Positions 3,064 through 19,970 of a DNA stretch of 31,306 bases are shown in pieces. The stretch is from positions 1 to 31,306 of the forward strand of contig JAYVJH010000537.1 of assembly GCA_043769455.1 (NCBI GenBank), read 5' to 3'. Within the stretch, counting starts at the first letter, position 1. Every line of letters starts with the position of its first letter. The notes beneath the pieces are model-generated. The model was not told the origin of the DNA. It made no database searches and worked only from the letters and a program-made list of their open reading frames with translations. The position numbers and the translations under genes are program-made. The stretch is from Runella sp. (GTDB taxonomy: Bacteria > Bacteroidota > Bacteroidia > Cytophagales > Spirosomataceae).

Positions 3064-3906
3064 ATGAAAGCAAAATATGTAAATCCATTTACTGACTTTG
3101 GTTTTAAAAAAATTTTTGGCGAAGAAGCAAGTAAACCCCTACTCATTGATTTCTTGACAAATTTATTGCCTGAAACCAATATTGTGGACTTGACTTTTAA
3201 GGATAAAGATAAACTTGGTGAAACAGAAGAAGATAGAAAAGCTATCTATGACATTTATTGTGAGAATAATTTGGGCGAAAAAATAATTATTGAACTACAA
3301 AAAGCAAAGCAAAATTATTTTAAAGACCGAACAGTTTACTATTCAACTTTTCCAATTCAAGAACAAGCAGAAAAAGGTGAGTGGAACTACCTACTAAAAT
3401 ATGTGTATTGTATTGGTATTTTAGATTTTAAATTTGACGAAAAAGTAAAATCAGGACAGGGTGAAGTAATTCATACCGTCCAATTGAAAGACCAAAATAA
3501 CAAAGTATTTTATGAAAAATTGAAGTTTGTTTATTTGGAAATGCCCCATTTTACTAACGAAGAGTATGAACTAGAAACACGTTTAGACAAATGGTTATAC
3601 TTCATCAGACACTTAGAGGATTTTCAAAGTATTCCTGAAATATTTAAAGACGAGGTGTTTATTCAAGCCTTTGAAAAAGCAGAAATTGCAAAGTACAGTG
3701 AAGAGGAACGAGAAAGTTATCAGCAAAGTTTAAAGAATTTTAGAGATAACAAAGCTGTCTATGAATATGCAATAGATACTGCTTTTGATGATGGCCAAGT
3801 CCAACGAACGCTGGAAATTGCGAAGACTGGCAAACTGATGGGATTATCAATCGACAACTTAATCAAATTGACAGGTTTAACAAGTGCTGAGATTGATAAT
3901 TTATGA
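3064..3906 (+). CDS. Rpn-family recombination-promoting nuclease / PD-(D/E)XK putative transposase
   Basis: Signature NPFTDFGFKKIFG, D..YDIYCEN..GEKIIIELQK, LEMP, and a short C-terminal tail (GLSIDNLIKLTGL). Its stop overlaps the sbcD start (ATGA, 3903-3906). Confidence 0.88.
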   Translation: MKAKYVNPFTDFGFKKIFGEEASKPLLIDFLTNLLPETNIVDLTFKDKDKLGETEEDRKAIYDIYCENNLGEKIIIELQKAKQNYFKDRTVYYSTFPIQEQAEKGEWNYLLKYVYCIGILDFKFDEKVKSGQGEVIHTVQLKDQNNKVFYEKLKFVYLEMPHFTNEEYELETRLDKWLYFIRHLEDFQSIPEIFKDEVFIQAFEKAEIAKYSEEERESYQQSLKNFRDNKAVYEYAIDTAFDDGQVQRTLEIAKTGKLMGLSIDNLIKLTGLTSAEIDNL

Positions 3907-8749: not shown

Positions 8750-8769
8750 GTGCTGCGAATCTCTGATTA

Positions 8770-9180
8770 TTAGGGTTTTAAATTATCTTTCTCTCGTAGA
8801 TATTTTGCCTCTATCTCAGCCTTTTCTTTTTCTGCTTGGCATAGTTTGAGTTCAAGTTGTAGTTTTTCTATTTGGTGCTGTGCTTCACGAGAATCATAAT
8901 TATTATTAGCTGTTTGGCCACCATTGTTTGTCCCTGTTACTACTTGCGGTGTGCTGCATTGGTCAAAAAAATTAGAGACAGTCTTTCCAAATTCCTCAAT
9001 ATCTTCTTTAGAAATACCGAACTCTTCGGCTATTTGCGCTATGCGCTCATCGCTTGGTTCAGTTTTGCCACGTTCAATATCTCCATAAGCTAATCGAGAA
9101 ATACCTATCATGTTAGCCATATTTTCTTGTGAAAGTCCTTTGATAGTTCTCAGAAATCTAATTTTTTCTCCTGTTTTCAT
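8770..9180 (-). CDS. XRE-family helix-turn-helix transcriptional regulator
   Basis: HTH_3 pattern KIRFLRTIKGLSQENMANMIGISRLAYGDIERG plus a C-terminal coiled coil. Divergent from the peptide operon. Confidence 0.9.
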   Translation of the reverse strand: MKTGEKIRFLRTIKGLSQENMANMIGISRLAYGDIERGKTEPSDERIAQIAEEFGISKEDIEEFGKTVSNFFDQCSTPQVVTGTNNGGQTANNNYDSREAQHQIEKLQLELKLCQAEKEKAEIEAKYLREKDNLKP

Positions 9181-9188
9181 AGTTTGTG

Positions 9189-9224
9189 CAAAATGTATAG
9201 TGGTTGGTTTACAAAATGTATAGT
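9189..9224. promoter_or_regulatory. Perfect 13-bp direct repeat CAAAATGTATAGT (candidate operator)
   Basis: Copies at 9189-9201 and 9212-9224 (23-bp period), directly upstream of the XRE start in the divergent promoter region. Confidence 0.5.
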
Positions 9225-9324
9225 ATTGAAAAGATGATAAAAATAATAAAAATTATCACATTTGTCTCAGTAAATTATTTGTTACAAAATTAAATCATTT
9301 TTCACATTAAAACTTGTAAATAGT

Positions 9325-9663
9325 ATGAAAAAAACATCAAAAAAATTTATCATTTTCGGACTATTATGTCTGTTTTTTGCTACCAACTCTATTGGTAGCA
9401 GCCCAGCTTTAGGGCGTTACAACACTATAGCCAATCCTAAAAATTATCAACCTAGCGGCGGCAAAGCCAATTATCCTGCGGTTGTAACTGCGGCTGTTGC
9501 TGTTGTAGCAACCACTTACTTTGCCGTTTATGAAGCTGGTAGAATCTTGGGCAAAGCTGCCTACTATTTTTTGTCAGGTAATACTGCAGTCAATGACGTA
9601 CAAAGTGCTGAATTTGCGTATTACAATGCAACAGATTTTTCATCTTATGACGCTAAAAATTAA
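9325..9663 (+). CDS. Secreted precursor peptide 1 (SdpC-like candidate toxin/RiPP precursor)
   Basis: 112 aa. Sec signal, GRY motif, Ala/Val/Gly-rich hydrophobic core (PAVVTAAVAVVATTYFAVYEAGRILGKAAYYF), C-terminal ATDFSSYD. First gene of an operon with SdpA/SdpB-like genes. Confidence 0.7.
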   Translation: MKKTSKKFIIFGLLCLFFATNSIGSSPALGRYNTIANPKNYQPSGGKANYPAVVTAAVAVVATTYFAVYEAGRILGKAAYYFLSGNTAVNDVQSAEFAYYNATDFSSYDAKN

Positions 9664-9679
9664 CTAAAAATAAAAAATT

Positions 9680-9994
9680 ATGAAGAAGAAAATTAACATT
9701 TTTATGCTACTGTTAGTATTATTTGTAAACATTAGCTACACAAACAGTGTCGCCATAGGCCGTTACAAAAATTCTAATATCCCCATATCAGTCAATTCTA
9801 ACGATAGAAAAGTAGGTTTTCCTGGATTGGTTTTGGCAGCACTGTACGTTGTAACATTAGGGGCGGTTTTTGTTGCTGGATTTGCTGAAGGTTGGGGACA
9901 AGCTGATGCAGCAGGTACTCAACGTTATACAGGTGTTTTCCCACTTTCAGAGAACCCAACAGATTTTTCTAAATTTGACACTGCGATAAATTAA
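9680..9994 (+). CDS. Secreted precursor peptide 2 (paralog of peptide 1)
   Basis: 104 aa. Sec signal, GRY motif, hydrophobic core (PGLVLAALYVVTLGAVFVAGFAEGWG), C-terminal PTDFSKFD. Confidence 0.7.
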   Translation: MKKKINIFMLLLVLFVNISYTNSVAIGRYKNSNIPISVNSNDRKVGFPGLVLAALYVVTLGAVFVAGFAEGWGQADAAGTQRYTGVFPLSENPTDFSKFDTAIN

Positions 9995-9996
9995 AT

Positions 9997-10677
9997 ATGA
10001 AAGGGTTTATTGAACGAGTCAGCTACGGGTGTAAAGTTCTACTTAGACTTACACTCGTAGCTACTCTATTTTTACACTTTAGTATAGTTGCTCTCGATCT
10101 TTTACCAGACAATCCTATTAAGCATCAGTATAAAAGAGAGTTGTTATACTACATGAATCCATTGTTTGCCCAGTCATGGAATTTATTTGCACCCAATCCA
10201 GTAAATTTTGATACCGCTATTTTGCTTCAATTCAAGAAAATGAAGAAAGGAAACGAAAATACTACGGCTTGGGTAGATATAATAGAACCATTATTAGAAA
10301 TACGAAGACAATCATTTTGGTCACCAACTCAAAGGGTTCTGAAAAATATGTCATCTATTACACAAAGTATAGCAGAAACCAATAACAATATTCGTATTTA
10401 TATCCAAAAAACAGATTCGCTTAAAAATAAAGATGTTGTAATTGATAAAATTTATAGCCGTCTTTATCCTACTTCACCTGGTCATATAGCACTAATACAA
10501 TATTCTAAGTATGTCTATAAAAACATGAATGAGACCGCGGATTTTGATAGTGTTTTGGTAAGATATAGAATTGTTTATCAAGAGTATCCTCGATTTTCAA
10601 AGCGAAAGCAAGATTATAACGACAAAAAAAACTGGAAAAATTCTGAAATTATTTCTAACTTTTATAAAGTCCAATGA
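9997..10677 (+). CDS. SdpA-like / DUF5819 family membrane-anchored protein
   Basis: Single N-terminal TM followed by YMNPLFAQSWNLFAPNP (the Q-x-W-x-(L/F)-F-A-P-x-P motif of DUF5819/SdpA). Immediately upstream of an HTTM gene with an ATGA overlap. Confidence 0.75.
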   Translation: MKGFIERVSYGCKVLLRLTLVATLFLHFSIVALDLLPDNPIKHQYKRELLYYMNPLFAQSWNLFAPNPVNFDTAILLQFKKMKKGNENTTAWVDIIEPLLEIRRQSFWSPTQRVLKNMSSITQSIAETNNNIRIYIQKTDSLKNKDVVIDKIYSRLYPTSPGHIALIQYSKYVYKNMNETADFDSVLVRYRIVYQEYPRFSKRKQDYNDKKNWKNSEIISNFYKVQ

Positions 10678-11879
10678 CATATAGCCAAGGCTTATCATAT
10701 TACAGGTTTGTTGTATCGTTTCTGGTAATAAAAAATACAATTTTTTATTTTCCAATGGCGAGTGAACTATTTGGTAAGAACGCCATTATCCCTTTGATGA
10801 TATATGATGCAAATAACAGTAGCCTTTTTTACTTAAAAACGCTACTCTTTTTTCCATTCCAATATTCTTACAGTGCACAATTATTTTTAATTTTGACTTT
10901 TATCACAGCGACCATATATTTGTTTGGTAAATGGCGTTTTGTTTCTGGTTGGATTCTTTATTATTTCATTATGGTAGCCAAAGAACGAAATGGTTTTATA
11001 CTTGATGGTTCTGATAATGTCATACAGGTAACATTACCTTTTTTGATTTTAGCCGAAACTTTACAACCACAGTTAGTTGCGAAAGTACTATTTTTGGATA
11101 AAATAAAAAACTTTACTAACTTTGATTTGTTCCTGTTGGCGTTAAAGGTGCAAGTATGTTTTGTGTATTTTTTTACCTCCTTAGCAAAACTACAAGGTAC
11201 TTTGTGGTTGAATGGCACTGCTGTTTACTATACTATGCGAGTGAGCGAATTTAATGCTACATCATGGAACGTACCTCTAACAGAAAACCACTACTTTGTA
11301 GTTGCATCAACATATTTTACGATTCTCTTTGAAATCGCTTTCCCTTTTTTAATATGGTTTAAGAGACCTAAATTTTTTATAATTATTGCAGGCATATTCC
11401 TACACGTAGGAATATGGGTATTTATGAGAATAGATAATTTTTCATGGATAATGATTGGTACTTATTTTCTTTTTATAGCAGACAACGAGTACAACCAGTT
11501 TCAAGCTATTGTTTACAAAAAAAGACTGTTGATTTATTTTGATAGTTGGTGTCCCAAATGTAGAGCGTTTATTTCACTAATTAGGATGATAGATGTTTTT
11601 GAAAATGTCCAATACGCATCAATCAGAGATATAAAAACAAGTGATATTATTGATACAAAGCGTTCTTTAAGAGAAATGCCATCTATTCAGACAAACAATG
11701 ATAAAGTTTACTATGGTTTTGATTCTCTTTTGAATGTTACCAAAGCTATTCCTATTCTCTGGCTTTTTGTTCCCTTGATGTATGTCTTAAAAATCACCAA
11801 CTTGGGCAAAATACTGTATAAAGAAATAGCTGATAATCGTAAAACTTTACACTGTAACGAAGATGAATGTAGTTTATAA
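10674..11879 (+). CDS. SdpB-like HTTM-domain membrane protein fused to a C-terminal DCC/DUF393-type thiol-disulfide oxidoreductase domain
   Basis: HTTM hallmarks: RNGFILDGSD, QVCFVYFFTSLAKLQGTLWLNGTAVYY, FEIAFPFLIW, GIFLHVGI. C-terminal LIYFDSWCPKC (DxxCxxC) ...YYGFDS..LYKEIADNR. Confidence 0.8.
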   Translation: MTYSQGLSYYRFVVSFLVIKNTIFYFPMASELFGKNAIIPLMIYDANNSSLFYLKTLLFFPFQYSYSAQLFLILTFITATIYLFGKWRFVSGWILYYFIMVAKERNGFILDGSDNVIQVTLPFLILAETLQPQLVAKVLFLDKIKNFTNFDLFLLALKVQVCFVYFFTSLAKLQGTLWLNGTAVYYTMRVSEFNATSWNVPLTENHYFVVASTYFTILFEIAFPFLIWFKRPKFFIIIAGIFLHVGIWVFMRIDNFSWIMIGTYFLFIADNEYNQFQAIVYKKRLLIYFDSWCPKCRAFISLIRMIDVFENVQYASIRDIKTSDIIDTKRSLREMPSIQTNNDKVYYGFDSLLNVTKAIPILWLFVPLMYVLKITNLGKILYKEIADNRKTLHCNEDECSL

Positions 11880-12177
11880 TTATTTCATACAAAGTAATTG
11901 GGTTCTTTGGTATGGTATTCCGCTGGTGTTGTACTACATTACTATATTTTATTTATTTCCAAACGTATATTTACTAAATTTGAATATACAGGAAAAAAGA
12001 ATTTATCCCCATATTAAGTCCACGCTTCTATTTGTCGCTTTACCGTATTTGTTAATATCGCTAATTATTTTTTTCATAGATATTAATATTTCCAATTCAC
12101 TATCGTCAAAGAGTGGTAGGATAATTACCTCATATCTACTCGTCAGACTTGTGTTACCATCACTTAAAATTAAGTAA
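11863..12177 (+). CDS. Small hydrophobic membrane protein (candidate immunity)
   Basis: 104 aa with 2-3 TM segments. Overlaps the HTTM gene end by 17 bp and has the same AT-rich composition. Confidence 0.5.
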   Translation: MNVVYNYFIQSNWVLWYGIPLVLYYITIFYLFPNVYLLNLNIQEKRIYPHIKSTLLFVALPYLLISLIIFFIDINISNSLSSKSGRIITSYLLVRLVLPSLKIK

Positions 12178-12181
12178 ACCC

Positions 12182-12703
12182 ATGAACATCTACACAAAGT
12201 TTTTATTCTATTCTATTGTTACTTCTCTGCTCGCCTTATTCGTTGTTTACAGTGTTTCATACTACATATCCAGTGACGGATTCTCTTCAAATGAGTCAAT
12301 TTTCTATGGTATGCTGGTCGCTTTTATCTATTTTTTAGTGTCTTTCATTACTGATACCATCTTTCTAACTCAGTATAAACAAGATTGTAAAAATGAAAAT
12401 ATATCGGTTGTAAAAAAACGGTTTCAGTTTCTGGCTATGACTATATTACCTTTTATATTTATAACTCTAATTGACTGGCTTTATTTCACCTTTATTGATA
12501 GCAGCATACCTAAAATGCACGTAGAATCAATAGCTGATGTGCTTATTTCCAATGGTCAAGACCCCGATGTAGTGTATAGTTTAGCTGAATTACCTCTAAT
12601 TGCCCAAAATATATTCGTTATTTTATTAGGTAAGATGATGAGTTCTACGTTTGCTATATTATTGTCAGACTCAATAACAAAAGACAAAGAACGTACTTAT
12701 TAG
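12182..12703 (+). CDS. ~4-TM membrane protein (DUF4199-like; candidate immunity)
   Basis: 173 aa from ATG 12182, 4 bp after the previous stop; the ORF-track start at 12149 overlaps that gene. Three TMs, a loop (YFTFIDSSIP), then a final TM. Confidence 0.6.
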   Translation: MNIYTKFLFYSIVTSLLALFVVYSVSYYISSDGFSSNESIFYGMLVAFIYFLVSFITDTIFLTQYKQDCKNENISVVKKRFQFLAMTILPFIFITLIDWLYFTFIDSSIPKMHVESIADVLISNGQDPDVVYSLAELPLIAQNIFVILLGKMMSSTFAILLSDSITKDKERTY

Positions 12704-12720
12704 TCTTGAATCAATAACCC

Positions 12721-14460
12721 CTACCAAGCAATGGTATAGGCAATCATTTCTTTGAGTGGTGCAATGAGTTCTTGTTTGCCATTGCTGGTACGGACAACGG
12801 GCGAAAACTCAGATGGAATATAAATATAATATTGCTGATGACGACCGTTGCTGGTGCCGTTGTCAATACTATAAATTCCTTTTTCGATTTCTATTATGGC
12901 ATCGGCCACGGCCAGCCGAATAGTCAGATCTGTAATCAATGCTGCGGCAGTGATGGTATTTACAAGCCCATTCCGGGTGGGTATTAGCTTTTGAGTTATT
13001 TCGGTTTTATCAAATAAATAATGTAGCGTGGGCGCGCCCAGTTCGTCTAATTTTGTTGCTTTGTAAGTGATGGCTGCCACGGTGTCAGGCCAGAGTGCGG
13101 CAGGCTCGTTGAGTGTAGCGATAATACTCTTTCCGTCTAATTGTTGCTTGACACCCAGCGGTTTGAGTAGTTGTGGCTCGCCCCGTTCGTGCCACATCTC
13201 GGTAACATCTGCAAACGCCCCACGCCATACTTGTAGCAAAGCAGCTTGGTTCAAATCGACAGAATAATGCAGCCCTTGCGGACTACCGACCGATAGTACG
13301 TGGGTGCGTTTTGTGCTTTCGCCTTCTATTTGTATAAAAGACCGCAATATTTCGGGCTTGTCTTTGGGTTCTACGGTTATCATTGGTATTGGCTCAGGCT
13401 CTGGCAAAGACGATAGCGCATGAAGTGAATAAGGCCGAACGCCCAATGCCGAAACCGTTAGCCCTAATGCTGCTGGCCGCCAGGCTTTGTGATAAAACAA
13501 CCTAAACCGATGCTCACCAGCCGACAGATTGACCGACCTACCGACAGGTTGCTGCGAAAACTCACTCCATTGGTTAGGTAGCACAGGCTTGTCGTCTATT
13601 GCCAAACTCAAATGACCCATATAGGCCATCGAAAACTGATACTCGGCAGTTATTTTAACGTTTATCGTTCCGTCATAAACTACACAAAAATCTTTTTGAC
13701 CCACGCCCCATGTCTGAGAGAGGGTTGATGTGGTATCTTTTTTTATTAGGTTTTTGGGGTCAATACTTTCAATGTTTTCTGCCCAGTCTTTATATAACTG
13801 GTAAGTCATTTGGGTTAGCGAAACTGGTTTTACTTCGTTCTGAATCTGATATAATACTTTTTGAACGGCCAATGTACCTGCTTCGACCTGAAAGCTAAGT
13901 ATATTTGAGTTGTTGGTTTGGGGCAAGAAAATATTTTCTTGAATCAAAACATCATTCAAATACAGGTATTCGAGTTGTGCTGGGGTGGCTGGTCTGGCTT
14001 TTCTGATTAGTAGCCTCACTGTTTGCCAAAGTCCTGATGCCTTACTTGCGTTTTGAGATGGAATGTTATTGCCGATACCTCCAGAAGTAGTATTTTTAGT
14101 GCCGTTTTGTAGCCAACTGTCTGCCACTTTAACAACATAACCACCTGGTAGAGTTACGTTACTTTTACCATCTTTTGATATTGCAAACTCAAATTGCAAC
14201 AACACATCACCACTCTCTAAACGAACCGTGGCTGGCATACCTACCGAACCCAGCAACACACCTTCGGTTTCAGAATAGAGTGGTAATTTTTGAGTTGCAT
14301 CAGGTTTGAAGGGGTGCATTTGTACTTGTTCATATACTTTCCAGTTGTCTTCAATCTTAAAAGAGTTGGGTGTAAGATTGGTCAAGCCATTCTGTGCAAG
14401 TGTATTGATGGCAGTCATACATAGTACGACAACAGATAAAAGCCGGTTATGAGAAATCAT
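12721..14460 (-). CDS. Secreted protein with a DUF1080-like (3-keto-disaccharide hydrolase-like) N-domain and a PA14 domain
   Basis: Signal peptide ending LA-Q from ATG 14460. NASKASGLWQ and YLNDVLIQEN are DUF1080-like. FCVVYDGTI..EYQFSM..LAIDDK..LSAGEHRFRLFY is PA14-like. Confidence 0.65.
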   Translation of the reverse strand: MISHNRLLSVVVLCMTAINTLAQNGLTNLTPNSFKIEDNWKVYEQVQMHPFKPDATQKLPLYSETEGVLLGSVGMPATVRLESGDVLLQFEFAISKDGKSNVTLPGGYVVKVADSWLQNGTKNTTSGGIGNNIPSQNASKASGLWQTVRLLIRKARPATPAQLEYLYLNDVLIQENIFLPQTNNSNILSFQVEAGTLAVQKVLYQIQNEVKPVSLTQMTYQLYKDWAENIESIDPKNLIKKDTTSTLSQTWGVGQKDFCVVYDGTINVKITAEYQFSMAYMGHLSLAIDDKPVLPNQWSEFSQQPVGRSVNLSAGEHRFRLFYHKAWRPAALGLTVSALGVRPYSLHALSSLPEPEPIPMITVEPKDKPEILRSFIQIEGESTKRTHVLSVGSPQGLHYSVDLNQAALLQVWRGAFADVTEMWHERGEPQLLKPLGVKQQLDGKSIIATLNEPAALWPDTVAAITYKATKLDELGAPTLHYLFDKTEITQKLIPTRNGLVNTITAAALITDLTIRLAVADAIIEIEKGIYSIDNGTSNGRHQQYYIYIPSEFSPVVRTSNGKQELIAPLKEMIAYTIAW

Positions 14461-14487
14461 AAGTGGTTGTGTTGAGGCAATAAAAAC

Positions 14488-14530
14488 AAAAAAGGCAGTT
14501 AGCATTTATAAATACTGACTGCCTTTTTTT
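14488..14530 (-). terminator. Rho-independent terminator after the T9SS Ig-repeat gene (probably bidirectional)
   Basis: AAAAAAGGCAGTTAGCATTTA/TAAATACTGACTGCCTTTTTT is a near-perfect palindrome with A/T tracts on both sides, 17 bp past the stop at 14547. Confidence 0.8.
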
Positions 14531-14546: not shown

Positions 14547-17500
14547 TTATTCAATCTTCAATATTTTGCGATGTGCCGTTTTATCGTTTTGTTCTATTCT
14601 CAAATAATATTGGCCCGACGGTACATTTTGAAGTGTTAGCTCTGTACGGTTTTGTTTTGTTTGGTATTGTTCTATGAGTCGGCCTGTGGCATCTAAAATC
14701 GAAATGGTAGCGGCATTTTTGAAGGTAATATTGCCGAAATCAACTACGATTTTGTCTTGAACTGGGTTGGGAAATACCGTTATCCAGTTGGCATTTGTAG
14801 TATTAGACGTACTCAATAACTGATTTACTCTGAGGCGATATTTGCTTGTAGCAAAGCCATTTCCACAGGCATTTATTACTGATACAACACTGTAAGTATT
14901 TGTTTTGGGCGATGTCAGCGTAAATTCGTAAGGACTTGTAGATAAGTCTAATGTTGTATTTTTTTGTGCCAAACTATCGCTATAAACCAACGTCCACGGA
15001 CTTTCGCCAGACAATGCAATGGTAATTTTAGTGGTTTCGTTTTCAAAAACACTTACCGGCCCGCTGATAGTTACATTGGGTAATTCTCGAACAGAAATCT
15101 GAACAGGGCTGACTTGGCCTTTTATACTAATGTTGGGTGCTGTACCCAATACCCTCATAAAATAATTGCCACCCAGTGTATTGGCAGGAATTGTGGCCGT
15201 GAGCGGGCTAATAGTACCTTGTGTTGGAATATTCTTAAAGTCGGCGTCTATATTTGTTTTTGAAATCTGAATTGTAAAAACGGCATTGGTTGGTACAAAA
15301 TCAGACGAAAAATATGGAATTATAAAAGTCTTACCTGCACAAAGCGAGGCTACATTTGGATTTCCTGTTGTAACGGTTGAGGTTCTTATGTTGATAGTTG
15401 CCGTACCGAGAGGCGTACCATCGCCACAGTTATTAGTGATTTTTGTTACTGTATAAATTGTCGTTTCGAGTGGTGTTACGGTAACAGTTGTAGGGTTTTG
15501 ACTAACTGTTGCCGTACCAGTAAAACCATTTGAGAGCGTGTATGTCCAAGGCCCTTGTCCCGAAAATTCTATTTTCAACGTTGCTGACTGGCCTTGAGTC
15601 AGGCTTGTTTCGCCACTAATGGTAGCCGTTGGCAATGGTTGAATAATCGCTACTATTTTGGCTCTATCGCTTTCACATCTGGTGGTAGCATCGGTTTGAG
15701 TAGCAAAAAAATCGTAAGTACCAGGTATTTGTGTAAAAATACCATAAACTGAGCCAGAGAAGGCAGGTCTGTTACCGTTGTACCACTTAATATCCGTGCC
15801 TGTAGCAGTAAGGTTTGCTATTGCTGCATTTTGACAGAACACAACTGGGTCTGTTGTTACGATTGGTTTGGGAGTAACTCGTACTTTTACAGTCAATATT
15901 GTGCGCTCACTTTCACAGCCGTCTAAGGTTTGTGTAACCCCATAATTTGCTATTAATGAATTGCCTGTTGTAATCATTGGGGCATCTGCCGAAGCTGTGT
16001 TGTTGGGGTAGTACCAGCGCAAAGCCGTGCCACCCGCTGTAAGTGTAAGTGTTGGGTCAAACTGACACAACAGATACTCTGTTATTAACTGGGTTGGTTT
16101 TTGAGGTAAAAACTTAACAAAAAAATTGATTTGTGTTTTTGGGCTTTCACAACCAAAGCCATTTACCTGAGATACAAAATATTGCCCAGCGCCAGCTATT
16201 TGAGTATTTACGGTCGGTGCATTTGGCAATGAGTTCAGCGAGAAAGTGTACCATTTTAGTGTGCTACCGTTGTCGGGTGTTCCTGTCAAGGGCTGTGCTG
16301 TTTCAAAACTACAATAAGTTGGACTTGCATTAGTTGGTGGTGTAATTGGTGTAGGATTGACCAATACCGTAACTGTTGAGCGAGGGCTTTCGCAGCCCAA
16401 TCCTGTTGTTTGAGATACATAGTAGTAGGTTGTTCCAGCAGTTTGTGTTGTCAATGTAGGCGACTGATTGGACGAAAAACCACCTGTAATTGTGCTATAC
16501 CACCCCAGGGTATTGCCGCTTGCTGGTGTTGCTACCAATGTGGTTGCAGGGTAGTTTTGACAAAAAACAGGATTGATAAAAGGTGGTGCTGCTGGTGTTG
16601 GGTTTATGCTTACATTGATGGTAGTAGCATTGCTTTCGCAACCAAAACCGTTTGTCTGCGTTACGGCATAGGCCGTTGTACCTGTGTTGGCAGTACTTGG
16701 GGTTGGTGCAGTACTCAGCACAGGGCCCGGAAAAGAATTATACCATTTTATGTTTGTACCATTGGCTGTTAGTTGGTTTGATGGGTACGTTTGGCAATAG
16801 GTAATGGCGGTAGTGGTAGTGGGTGGTGCGGGTTGTGGGTTTACGTTTACTTGTACCAAAGTACGTGGAATATTCTCACAACCTGCAAAAGTACCAGATA
16901 CATATAATCGTTGTGTTACATAATAATTTGTAATACCTACATTGGCAGAGCTTGGTATAGGTGCCGTACCTGAGCTATTGCCACCTGTTGCGGCTGCGTA
17001 CCAGCTGATGCTTCCTCCTAAACTTGGTGTGGCTACAAGTGGATTAGTATTGCTATTTTGACAATAAGTAATATTTGAAGCTGATGGTGCAGGGGTAAAA
17101 TTGACCAATGCCGTAATAGTAGCCTGCGGACTTTCGCAGAGTGCTGGCGATGCGGTAATTTGTGATACTTTATAGGTATAAGTAGTGCTTCCACCTACGT
17201 TGGTATTGGGTGTGGGTGCAGATGTTCCAGTAAAGTTTCCATTACCGTCGTACCATTTCAAGGTATTGCCTGTGCTTGGGCTTGCGTTCATGGCACTTGC
17301 ACCGTCGTTTTGGCAATATACTGCACTCGAAGCCGAGGGTATGGCAGGTATGGCATTGATTGTTACCGTAATTGTGGCTCTTGTACTTTCACAACCATTT
17401 AGTATTTGGCTTACATAATAGTTTGTACTACCGACACTGGCCGATGATGGTACAGTTGCTGCCCCAGATGGTATGCCACCTGTTGCATTTGGTCCATACC

Positions 17501-19970
17501 ATTGAGCAGATGCACCTGTTACAAAAACGCCCGACAAGGCAGTTGTAGGGGCATTGTTACAAATATTGACTGGGGTAGTAACGCTCGGTGCATTTGGAAC
17601 GGCATTGACCAAAACAGAAACGGGTGTACGTGGTGTGCTTTCGCAGCCCGTGGTTGTATTTTTCTGGACTACATAGTAAGTTGTCGTTCCCAAAACGGCA
17701 GTACTTGGTATGGTAGCAGTAGTTGTACCTGTGCCGCCTGTGGTGTTTATGTCATAATATACCAACGAAAATCCAGACGTAGCTGGTGCAATATAGTTTG
17801 ACAATGCTGGCGTACTTTGGTTTTGACAAGCAACTACCGGCAACGAAGCCGTAATGGTTGGTGCTTGCGTAACATATACAGTCGTTGTTACTGCCGTTCT
17901 GGGTGCAAACTCACAGCCATTGGCGTTGGCTTGTGTAACGTAATAAGTGGTGTTTGTAGTAGTTGTAACTGCTGTATTTGGGGTTGGTGCGCCAATTACA
18001 GTTCCAGCAGTTGCTACTGCATACCAGCGAATGGTATTGCCAGTAGATGGTGTTGCTACCAACGGCGTGCTACTTTGTCCTTGGCAGAGTAGTACCGAGG
18101 TGGTTGTAGTTGGTGCGGCTGTTGGTGTTGCGTTTACAGTTACCGTTATAGCCGTCCGTGGGCCTTCGCAATTCAGTCCAGTTATTTGAGACACATAATA
18201 ATTGAGAGTCGTTGCGCTGGCCGTCGATGGTGTTGGGGCTGTTGTTACAAACGTACCACCTGTTGCCACCGTGTACCATCTGAGGGTATTGCCAGTTGCT
18301 GCCGTTGCCGATAGTGGTGTGGCCACATCGTTTTGGCAATAAGTATAGGTAGTAGTAGCGGCTGGTGCAGTAGGTGTAGGATTTACATTTACAACAATCG
18401 TAGCACGTACACTCCCGCACGTACCCAACTGCGATACATAATAGCTTATTGAGCCACTTGTAGCAGTAGCGGGCGTAGGTGCTGTTGCGCTGGCTGTGCC
18501 ACCCGTAGCGACCGTGTACCATTTCAGGGTATTGGTACCTGTTGCCGTGGCACTAAGTGCGGTGGCAGTAGCATTTTGACAGTAAATAACTGGCGATGTA
18601 ACTGTTGGAGCAGCAGGCAATGGGTTGATAGTTACAGTTACGGTCGTCCGTGGGCTTTCGCAATTTAGTCCTGTTATTTGAGATACATAATAATTGAGAG
18701 TTGTGGCAGTAGTAGTCGATGGTGTTGGGGCTGTTGTTACAAACGTCCCACCTGTTGCCATTGTGTACCATCTGAGGCTACTACCAGTTGCTGCCGTTGC
18801 CGATAGTGGCGTGGCTACGTCATTTTGGCAATAAATATAGGCAGTAGTAGCGGCTGGTGCAGTTGGTGTAGGATTGATATTTACAACAATCGTAGCACGT
18901 ACACTCTCGCACGTACCCGCCGACTGCGATACATAATAGCTTGTTGAGCCACTTGTAGTAGTAACGGGCGTAGGTGCAGTTGCGCCTGCTGTGCCACCCA
19001 TAGCGACTGTGTACCATTTCAGGGTATTTGTACCTGTGGCCGTGGCATTAAGTGCGGTAGCAGTGGCGTTTTGACAATAAATTACTGGCGACGTAACCGT
19101 TGGAGCAGTTGGGGCGGCACTAACGGCTACTATTACGGCTGTTCGTTGGCTTTCGCAAGTACCATCGGTCTGAGAAACATAATAGTTAAGTGTTGTTGCT
19201 GTGGTGGTAGATGGCGTGGGGGCAGTGGTTACAAACGTACCACCCGTTGCCACTGTGTACCATCTGAGGGTATTACCTGCGGTTGCTGTTGCCGATAGTG
19301 GTGTGGCCACGTCGTTTTGGCAATAAGTATAGGTAGTGGTAGCGACTGGTGCGCTGGGTCCTGTTACAACTACCGAAATACTGGCACGAGTATTACTCTC
19401 ACAACCACTCACAGTTTGAGTTGCAAAATATGCGCTTGTAGAAGGTGCTGTTGTGCTGGGTGTTGGGGCTGTTGCGCTAGCTATACCGCCTGTTGCTGCC
19501 GTGTACCACAAAATGGCCATTCCAGCAGCCGATAGTGGTACGGCAGTTGTGCCTGTGCAATAATTAACTGGGCTTGTAACGGCGGGTGCGGCAGGCGGTA
19601 CTGCAACTGCAAACGCTGGGCTACCTGCACTCGTAACCACCACAGGACCTGACACTATCCGAACCGAATAGGCCGAACCAGATGTGAGCGATGCGGGTAG
19701 AGTTATGGTAGCAGGGCTGGCAGCAGTTGCGCCCAGCACGGTAGGAACCAAAAAACTACCCATAGCATCAGACAATTCAACAGAATAAGAAGGCGTACCT
19801 ACAAAACCCGTGGCCGTAAACGACACAATAGCCGTGCTACCCGAACAAAACGCCGTTGCCCCCGCTGGTAACGACATACCAACACCACTAATAGTTTGGC
19901 TGTAAACACTAACTGATAGTAAACCTGAAAAAAGACTTAGGCTTAAAGAATAAAGTATTTTTTTGAACAT
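14547..19970 (-). CDS. Large T9SS-secreted surface protein / putative adhesin with 16 tandem Ig-like (CHU_C-associated type) repeats and a type A CTD
   Basis: Signal peptide (VYS-Q). Sixteen ~80-aa repeats P..P...(Y)C Q...L.A...G..L.WY...GG...PTP.T....YYVSQ...CES.R. C-terminal VFPNPVQD..ILDATGR..L.NVPSGQYYLRI..KILK. Confidence 0.9.
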   Translation of the reverse strand: MFKKILYSLSLSLFSGLLSVSVYSQTISGVGMSLPAGATAFCSGSTAIVSFTATGFVGTPSYSVELSDAMGSFLVPTVLGATAASPATITLPASLTSGSAYSVRIVSGPVVVTSAGSPAFAVAVPPAAPAVTSPVNYCTGTTAVPLSAAGMAILWYTAATGGIASATAPTPSTTAPSTSAYFATQTVSGCESNTRASISVVVTGPSAPVATTTYTYCQNDVATPLSATATAGNTLRWYTVATGGTFVTTAPTPSTTTATTLNYYVSQTDGTCESQRTAVIVAVSAAPTAPTVTSPVIYCQNATATALNATATGTNTLKWYTVAMGGTAGATAPTPVTTTSGSTSYYVSQSAGTCESVRATIVVNINPTPTAPAATTAYIYCQNDVATPLSATAATGSSLRWYTMATGGTFVTTAPTPSTTTATTLNYYVSQITGLNCESPRTTVTVTINPLPAAPTVTSPVIYCQNATATALSATATGTNTLKWYTVATGGTASATAPTPATATSGSISYYVSQLGTCGSVRATIVVNVNPTPTAPAATTTYTYCQNDVATPLSATAATGNTLRWYTVATGGTFVTTAPTPSTASATTLNYYVSQITGLNCEGPRTAITVTVNATPTAAPTTTTSVLLCQGQSSTPLVATPSTGNTIRWYAVATAGTVIGAPTPNTAVTTTTNTTYYVTQANANGCEFAPRTAVTTTVYVTQAPTITASLPVVACQNQSTPALSNYIAPATSGFSLVYYDINTTGGTGTTTATIPSTAVLGTTTYYVVQKNTTTGCESTPRTPVSVLVNAVPNAPSVTTPVNICNNAPTTALSGVFVTGASAQWYGPNATGGIPSGAATVPSSASVGSTNYYVSQILNGCESTRATITVTINAIPAIPSASSAVYCQNDGASAMNASPSTGNTLKWYDGNGNFTGTSAPTPNTNVGGSTTYTYKVSQITASPALCESPQATITALVNFTPAPSASNITYCQNSNTNPLVATPSLGGSISWYAAATGGNSSGTAPIPSSANVGITNYYVTQRLYVSGTFAGCENIPRTLVQVNVNPQPAPPTTTTAITYCQTYPSNQLTANGTNIKWYNSFPGPVLSTAPTPSTANTGTTAYAVTQTNGFGCESNATTINVSINPTPAAPPFINPVFCQNYPATTLVATPASGNTLGWYSTITGGFSSNQSPTLTTQTAGTTYYYVSQTTGLGCESPRSTVTVLVNPTPITPPTNASPTYCSFETAQPLTGTPDNGSTLKWYTFSLNSLPNAPTVNTQIAGAGQYFVSQVNGFGCESPKTQINFFVKFLPQKPTQLITEYLLCQFDPTLTLTAGGTALRWYYPNNTASADAPMITTGNSLIANYGVTQTLDGCESERTILTVKVRVTPKPIVTTDPVVFCQNAAIANLTATGTDIKWYNGNRPAFSGSVYGIFTQIPGTYDFFATQTDATTRCESDRAKIVAIIQPLPTATISGETSLTQGQSATLKIEFSGQGPWTYTLSNGFTGTATVSQNPTTVTVTPLETTIYTVTKITNNCGDGTPLGTATINIRTSTVTTGNPNVASLCAGKTFIIPYFSSDFVPTNAVFTIQISKTNIDADFKNIPTQGTISPLTATIPANTLGGNYFMRVLGTAPNISIKGQVSPVQISVRELPNVTISGPVSVFENETTKITIALSGESPWTLVYSDSLAQKNTTLDLSTSPYEFTLTSPKTNTYSVVSVINACGNGFATSKYRLRVNQLLSTSNTTNANWITVFPNPVQDKIVVDFGNITFKNAATISILDATGRLIEQYQTKQNRTELTLQNVPSGQYYLRIEQNDKTAHRKILKIE
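18130..19360 (-). repeat. Intragenic 492-bp-period tandem duplication (Ig repeats 2-6, A-B-A-B-A)
   Basis: The anchor TTTTGGCAATAA starts at 18331, 18823 and 19315 (exact 492-bp spacing). Alternate repeats are nearly identical in protein sequence. Confidence 0.85.

Follow-up and report, generated by a model that had tools for sequence, protein, structure and literature searches.

The SDP and YIT toxins of Bacillus depend on HTTM proteins, and proteins of this kind are also encoded in linaridin clusters. Class IIb bacteriocins are specified by adjacent genes for two peptides, which carry GxxxG motifs, together with an immunity gene (PMC2850506). A pair formed by a DUF5819 protein and an HTTM-DCC1 protein has been published without a known substrate; the AlphaFold 3 (AF3) complex of the two proteins resembles GGCX and the Asp-carboxylase MloH (preprint 10.64898/2026.08.19.745780). 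Here we describe a locus in a 31,306-nucleotide stretch of DNA (the window; contig JAYVJH010000537.1 of assembly GCA_043769455.1) from Runella sp., a sediment Bacteroidota bacterium. The locus is a seven-gene cassette, in which the genes of two paralogous peptides with Sec-type signals, A and B, stand directly upstream of the genes of a DUF5819 protein and an HTTM-DCC1 fusion protein. The explanation we favour, with a probability of about one in two, is a split carboxylase-like enzyme with dedicated peptide substrates, a membrane-active two-peptide product and immunity proteins.

Comparison with described systems

The published DUF5819/HTTM-DCC1 pair and the window locus have in common the three Pfam domains, the adjacent or overlapping genes, the N-terminal helix of the DUF5819 protein, and the catalytic Lys and Trp. 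By these features the locus is assigned to the family of DUF5819 + HTTM-DCC1 split GGCX-like pairs. The window belongs to a single Bacteroidota clade, which differs from the published pair in having 2-5 peptide genes upstream of the enzyme genes, in the DUF4199-like membrane proteins that follow them, and in a DCC1 domain that can be fused or separate. The peptide family itself, its A/B pairing, its tight linkage to one enzyme clade and the complete portable cassette are new.

The original prediction, made from the sequence of the window, had described the cluster as SdpABC-like. The SdpABC/SdpIR and YitPOM/YitQ systems of B. subtilis do share with the window an HTTM protein and a small partner encoded beside a Sec-exported precursor with a hydrophobic region, as well as a membrane protein nearby with an immunity role, putative in the window, and the location on an accessory island. 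SdpR is an ArsR-type regulator. The window locus differs in its XRE regulator, the DCC1 domain, the diderm host and the leading position of the peptide genes, and its peptides are short (~105 aa), paired, Cys-free and provided with a C-terminal motif.

A true SdpABC-type cannibalism system, in which DUF5819 would correspond to SdpA, HTTM to SdpB, the peptides to SdpC and the membrane protein to SdpI, would be in keeping with the Sec-exported, hydrophobic precursors, which resemble SdpC and YitM, and with the small protein gene immediately upstream of the HTTM gene. It would also fit the weak match of the window HTTM protein to the SdpB model TIGR04033 (E=4e-13); this match reached only 49.7 bits against a cut-off of 178.4. 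The SdpA (TIGR04034) and SdpC models did not match any of the window proteins at E<=1, TIGR04034 touched only one of 54 DUF5819 relatives (E=0.045), and Pfam revealed no SdpI-type domain; the membrane proteins had no match in NCBIfam or Pfam. The precursors are paired and ~105 aa long instead of single and ~200 aa long, the regulator is of the XRE type, the peptide genes precede the enzyme genes, and a DCC1 domain is present. These differences make such a system very unlikely. The locus is thus not a member of the SdpABC family, yet it may work like one.

With class IIb bacteriocins such as lactococcin G and the plantaricins, the window shares two peptides encoded in one operon, GxxxG motifs, and adjacent small membrane genes of the immunity type. 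There is no significant sequence similarity, however. The window peptides have a Sec-type signal with an A-x-A-like site in place of a double-glycine leader, they carry a conserved C-terminal motif, the host belongs to the Bacteroidota, and a C39 ABC transporter is absent from the window. Unlike in class IIb, a dedicated membrane enzyme pair is encoded beside the peptides, which implies modification.

Linaridin clusters (LinG HTTM protein, LinE hydrolase, LinL) resemble the locus in combining a precursor, an HTTM protein and a small protein; the Thr-rich core of linaridins gives dehydrobutyrine. They differ from the locus in that the window lacks a LinE alpha/beta-hydrolase, the cassette showed no homologue of LinM, LinD or LinT, and the window peptides have Sec signals.

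Layout and insertion of the cassette

The seven open reading frames listed in the original prediction were all recovered, those of the plus strand separated by gaps of 16 nt or less or overlapping:

8750-12710: inserted cassette of ~3.96 kb, flanked by the SbcC-like and PA14 genes, which converge on it with their stop codons
8770-9180, minus strand: XRE-family helix-turn-helix (HTH) regulator of 136 aa whose C-terminal tail is coiled-coil-like (Pfam HTH_3, E=7e-13)
9189-9201 and 9212-9224, plus strand: two identical copies of a 13-nt direct repeat, CAAAATGTATAGT, whose starts are 23 nt apart
9325-9663, plus strand: peptide A (peptide 1), 112 aa; no Pfam family
9680-9994, plus strand: peptide B (peptide 2), 104 aa; recognized by the subtype-B hidden Markov model (HMM)
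9997-10677, plus strand: DUF5819 protein, 226 aa (PF19136, E=2e-21)
10674-11879, plus strand: polytopic GGCX-like HTTM membrane protein with C-terminal DCC1-like fusion, 401 aa (PF05090, E=5.6e-8; PF04134, E=1.4e-12)
11863-12177, plus strand: two-helix membrane protein m98, 104 aa (hydropathy; no Pfam family above cut-off)
12182-12703, plus strand: four-helix membrane protein m177, divergent DUF4199-like, 173 aa from the ATG at 12182, or 184 aa if started from the TTG at 12149

An AT-rich gap of 144 bp separates the XRE gene from the six plus-strand genes. The 13-nt repeat pair, lying between the XRE gene and peptide A, is a candidate XRE operator. The plus-strand genes are tightly packed: the gaps between peptides A and B and between peptide B and DUF5819 measure 16 and 2 nt, DUF5819 and HTTM overlap by 4 nt (10674-10677), HTTM and m98 by 17 nt, and m98 and m177 either overlap by 29 nt (TTG start) or are 4 nt apart (ATG start at 12182).

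The GC content is 31-35% across the cluster and ~42% in the flanks. An empty site was found in a genome of the same genus, G001 (G- and L-numbers denote comparison genomes and homologous loci, respectively). There C119:12017 is the last position of the SbcC-like gene (93% identity), the PA14 gene (88%) spans positions 12032-13789, and about a dozen bases lie between the two stop codons. Because the flanking genes are adjacent in G001, the ~3.96 kb segment extending from the XRE gene through the last membrane protein (roughly 8750-12710) is an insertion, and the XRE regulator, being inside it, belongs to the cassette. Divergent XRE homologues occupy the equivalent position in L010/L011 and L020. 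We found no mobility gene in the inserted segment and saw no target-site duplication at its junctions. DUF5819 was present in 5 of the 401 sampled Bacteroidota and was not found in 40 relatives, among them the other genome of the genus. The empty site in the congener, the low GC content and the sporadic distribution identify the seven-gene cassette as a horizontally acquired, self-contained accessory element. It looks like a portable peptide-maturation unit.

The peptide family

The two peptides, A and B, are paralogous to each other (BLASTP E=1e-8). They agree with the original prediction of two precursors of about 100 aa that have Cys-free cores and share a C-terminal motif: both carry T-D-F-S-x-(Y/F)-D near the C-terminus and have no Cys in the mature part, the single Cys of peptide A lying in the signal peptide. 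In peptide A a Sec-type signal is followed by L-G-R-Y past the predicted cleavage site, a polar linker, a hydrophobic helix with G-R-I-L-G-K-A-A-Y-Y, and an acidic tail ending in D-F-S-S-Y-D-A-K-N. Peptide B is built to the same plan, with G-F-A-E-G-W in the core and D-F-S-K-F-D-T-A-I-N at the end of the tail. In the AlphaFold 2 (AF2) model of peptide A, residues 5-24 form the signal helix, residues 51-84 a long helix and residues 89-97 a short one; the linker is disordered, and the mean predicted local distance difference test (pLDDT) score is 70.

A profile of four peptides retrieved 71 cluster representatives from 1.84 billion proteins (E<=1e-3), nearly all of them 97-121 aa long. The family counts given here rest on the 80 peptide sequences gathered. 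The C-terminal motif [DNE]-F-x-x-[FY]-[DN] was present in 80/80, with exactly one residue beyond it in 57, and the hydrophobic core of 78 of the 80 contains GxxxG. Residues G30, G72, G76, F105, F108 and D109 (peptide-1 numbering) are nearly invariant. The predicted signal-peptidase site has the consensus A-x-(A/S), after which comes (V/F/I)-G-(S/A)-Y, and the tail has the consensus Y-(N/D)-x-x-D-F-S-K-F-D-x. The predicted mature peptide of ~80 aa consists of a Ser/Thr-rich, near-neutral N-terminal segment of 25 aa, a core of transmembrane grade (family-wide mean peak Kyte-Doolittle value 2.15) and a 36-aa tail, which is net negative in 95% of the members (mean -3.6; on average 5.8 Asp/Glu in 36 residues).

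The family falls into two core subtypes, A with Y-A-A-G-Y-V-V-G-T-x-A-(H/Y)-(H/Y) and B with F-V-V-G-V-V-(D/N)-G-(W/Y)-N. Subtype HMMs separated the two window peptides clearly: peptide A scored 97 bits with model A and 48 with model B, peptide B 96 with model B and 54 with model A. In 12 loci an A gene is followed by a B gene, the latter adjoining DUF5819. The number of peptide genes per locus varies from 2 to 5, and the cores are strongly divergent, conservation being mostly limited to the ends. Several copies with divergent cores between conserved ends form the pattern that would be expected of precursors or toxins.

The peptides fall outside all Pfam and NCBIfam families. The UniRef label 'DUF4134' on Hymenobacter peptides was not reproduced by Pfam and NCBIfam searches, and TrbC/VirB2 models matched only 4/74 (best E=1.3e-4); both were treated as compositional. 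An Atlas search with peptide A returned matches at chance level only.

Linkage of the peptide and enzyme genes

In a sample of 401 genomes from the order, the four that have DUF5819 were also the four with full-length peptide genes (E<=5e-6), adjacent to it in each, against 0/397 elsewhere; the peptides and the enzyme genes thus occur together outside the window, as the original prediction had implied. Three of the four DUF5819-positive genomes belong to one genus, so the 4/4 co-occurrence does not represent four independent events. Weak matches to the peptide profile in 11 other genomes of the order proved to be pieces of larger open frames, mostly of 455-472 aa, and were discarded as false positives.

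The linkage was seen from both sides. All loci reached through the peptides (L007/8, L010/11, L018, L020, L022) have DUF5819-HTTM genes downstream. A scan of genome contigs with the DUF5819 alignment gave five loci (L012-L016), in Hymenobacter metallicola, H. sp. H14-R3, H. elongatus, a metagenome-assembled genome of the Cyclobacteriaceae and Rhodonellum psychrophilum, and all of these have 2-5 peptide genes upstream. In Hymenobacter aquaticus (G374) peptides of 105 and 103 aa are accompanied by DUF5819, HTTM, membrane proteins of 98 and 175 aa, and a separate DCC1 gene. At least 12 independent loci share the gene order of the window, and together with the co-occurrence of 4/4 versus 0/397 this places the layout far beyond chance. 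The flanking genes differ in each lineage, which shows that the cassette moves as a unit. As they are found only beside the enzyme, the peptides are the first concrete candidates for its substrates.

The strict co-occurrence, and the transmembrane-grade helix with GxxxG packing motifs, would also suit another explanation, in which the small proteins are accessory GxxxG membrane subunits of the HTTM/DUF5819 complex, and the enzyme acts on something encoded at another place or on a non-peptide; distant pairs function without peptides of this kind. Stoichiometric subunits, however, rarely vary between 2 and 5 tandem copies and rarely diverge until only their ends are conserved beside an enzyme that is still 46-69% identical. 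The cleavable Sec signals and the invariant motif at the C-terminus rather resemble recognition elements, and in L023/L019 an exporter stands between the enzyme genes and the peptide genes, which are 10 genes apart. We therefore consider the subunit role unlikely.

Three further loci deserve mention. An orphan weak family member without GxxxG, P0071 (L021, ERZ25067213 contig_3), lies beside genes for a TonB receptor and outer membrane proteins, and no DUF5819 or HTTM gene was found within 7 kb of it. In L010, HopA1-like and LanC-like genes (50-2317) stand upstream of the cassette copy and are not conserved in the other loci. In Bacillus cereus (L024/L025) the genes that come after a distant DUF5819 pair encode a transglutaminase-core protein and a stand-alone DCC1 protein, and no family peptide lies nearby.

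The DUF5819/HTTM-DCC1 pair

The domains proposed in the original prediction (DUF5819, HTTM and DUF393, that is DCC1) all scored above the curated Pfam cut-offs: 77.8 bits for DUF5819 (cut-off 27.1), 33.1 for HTTM (27.7) and 49.3 for the DCC1-like domain (27.8); the HTH_3 domain of the regulator scored 48.8 (23). The DUF5819 and HTTM genes are co-oriented and adjacent, and their order is kept in all related loci.

A profile of 11 HTTM proteins from related loci matched structures of human GGCX, the vitamin K-dependent carboxylase (E=6e-6). GGCX was reached by this profile, whereas a single-sequence phmmer search of the HTTM protein against the PDB gave only weak thioredoxin matches. Residues K172 and W178 (numbered as in the window protein) are invariant and align with K-K-L-D-A-D-W of GGCX; in GGCX Lys218 has a catalytic and Trp223 a stacking role (PMC12647623). 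The host genome contains menA (E=5e-95), which makes a menaquinone cofactor plausible.

The DCC1-like thiol-disulfide domain carries C-P-K-C. It is fused to HTTM in some loci (window, L010), and encoded by a separate downstream or a divergent upstream gene in others (L007, L006, L015, L022), a pattern of fusion and fission that supports a functional link. The stand-alone DCC1 proteins of sister loci start at the CxxC strand without a preceding signal peptide, and this indicates a cytoplasmic location of the domain. The 188-aa DUF5819 domain is predicted to be periplasmic, because hydropathy and charge indicate a basic N-terminus and one N-terminal membrane helix. Its AF2 model had a mean pLDDT of 89.9.

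Small membrane proteins and an exporter-bearing relative

Homologues of m98 occupy the equivalent position in L006, L007, L010 and L015, and an m177 gene follows HTTM in nearly all loci with enough flanking sequence. The similarity of m177 to DUF4199 clusters was 0.91 by Atlas features and 0.64 by structural TM-score. We regard both proteins as candidate immunity or accessory proteins. Between loci HTTM is 46-69% identical, DUF5819 40-52% and the DUF4199-like protein 22-42%, while the peptides share little beyond their ends. This gradient of identities fits a toxin/immunity pair, short of proof.

One relative is more elaborate. L023 and L019 form one contig, JAHLSW010000548.1 of GCA_020357715.1, which starts with a NusG paralogue, DUF5819, HTTM, membrane proteins of 105 and 189 aa (the latter m177-like) and an M16 peptidase, and continues with Wzy_C, TPR, OEP, ABC, MacB_PCD/FtsX, HlyD, DCC1 and five tandem peptide genes. 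Through this gene content the peptide family is connected with proteolysis and with export over two membranes. The original statement that the system has no dedicated exporter or peptidase accordingly holds for the window and fails for this relative. The five peptide genes of L019 are followed by the gene of a secreted alpha/beta-hydrolase. Its 689-aa product was considered as a LinH-like HTTM fusion and rejected (hhalign probability 0.2%), the hydrolase being neither fused nor related to HTTM.

These data bear on an explanation in which the peptides are genuine substrates and the product is no toxin: it would be a Ca2+- or metal-binding acidic pair, an envelope or stress factor, or a signal, with the membrane proteins as assembly or transport partners. 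The tail is acidic, as in Gla domains (mean 5.8 Asp/Glu), the products of GGCX bind Ca2+ and are not toxic (PMC12647623), m177 falls into a widespread DUF4199 group with no known immunity role, and the window has no outer-membrane exporter. A portable, sporadic, XRE-controlled cassette with 2-5 fast-diverging peptide copies is, on the other hand, more typical of antagonism loci, and one relative possesses a dedicated peptidase and a tripartite exporter. A non-toxic product is possible, at a clearly lower probability than the membrane-active product that we favour. A PADLOC search gave no defence-system match beyond HTH.

Neighbouring genes

A gene for a PD-(D/E)XK nuclease-family transposase (PF12784, E=9e-66; 32% GC) lies at 3064-3906, just upstream of the SbcD/SbcC-like genes, and this stretch is probably another small insertion. 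The PA14-domain protein (12721-14505, minus strand) adjoins an 1807-aa protein (14547-19970, minus strand) with 11 CHU_C-associated Ig-like repeats and a C-terminal sorting domain of the type IX secretion system (T9SS). Both are resident surface or secreted proteins outside the cassette.

Discussion

In the mechanism that we favour, the XRE repressor would control the operon, and peptides A and B would be Sec-exported, with cleavage by signal peptidase I immediately ahead of (V/F/I)-G-(S/A)-Y. The split GGCX-like enzyme, composed of the membrane-anchored DUF5819 protein and the HTTM core, would handle the peptides on the periplasmic face, where it would most likely recognize or modify the invariant acidic C-terminal tail ending in Y-N-x-x-D-F-S-K-F-D. 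The reaction, carboxylation or processing, may be a menaquinol/O2 chemistry started by the conserved Lys172, and the cytoplasmic DCC1 CxxC domain may supply the reducing power for quinone recycling. The matured A and B would then pair through their GxxxG helices to form a membrane-active, bacteriocin-like two-peptide product, against which the fast-evolving DUF4199-like protein and the 104-aa membrane protein would protect the producer.

A more specific form of this mechanism is tentative, and we hold it rather doubtful as a whole. In it, a GGCX-like carboxylase of bacteria that depends on menaquinone would have A and B as its first ribosomal substrates, with carboxylation of Asp/Glu in the D-F-S-K-F-D tail, the cytoplasmic DCC1 domain as a built-in functional equivalent of VKOR, and the pair as a new class of two-peptide bacteriocins in Bacteroidota resembling RiPPs (peptides made on the ribosome and modified after translation).

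Several observations weigh against the favoured mechanism. Distant DUF5819/HTTM pairs in another Bacteroidota family (L003-L005; 1.5-kb flanks) and in Bacillus cereus (L024) stand without such peptides, which would make the peptides clients of one enzyme clade only. SdpB is not known to carboxylate SDP. In a Foldseek search of the PDB with the isolated DUF5819 model there was no match at E<=0.001, nor was a GGCX chain among the 50 matches listed; with no significant match for the isolated model, the correspondence of DUF5819 to the luminal 'clamp' of GGCX was not reproduced here. The transmembrane-grade core of the peptides could act as a stop-transfer anchor and keep the tail on the cytoplasmic side, remote from the active site, which is predicted to be periplasmic; the net negative charge of the tail fits the periplasmic side better, and this would place the tail near the enzyme. 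The mature peptides, at ~80 aa, are longer than class IIb peptides, and no bacteriocin family was matched, a hit to lactococcin G-alpha (E=0.011) falling below the cut-off and being treated as compositional. Pfam detected no ABC exporter, outer-membrane exporter or peptidase near the cassette in the window. Finally, the sequence of the locus was found in no RNA run, the runs containing it being DNA metagenomes only.

In agreement with the original prediction, literature searches turned up no characterized Bacteroidota product of this type. Pairs of HTTM and DUF5819 proteins are widespread in bacteria; a recent prediction makes them split relatives of the vitamin K-dependent carboxylase, with no substrate known, and the chemical role of the HTTM protein is unresolved even for the SDP toxin and the linaridins. 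The cassette and its peptide family of about 80 members unite candidate substrates, enzyme, redox partner and putative immunity genes in a compact transferable system, so that the action of bacterial HTTM enzymes on peptides becomes directly testable from 4 kb of DNA. If the product is antibacterial, it would represent a new type of bacteriocin from the Cytophagales, a group with few characterized peptide antibiotics.

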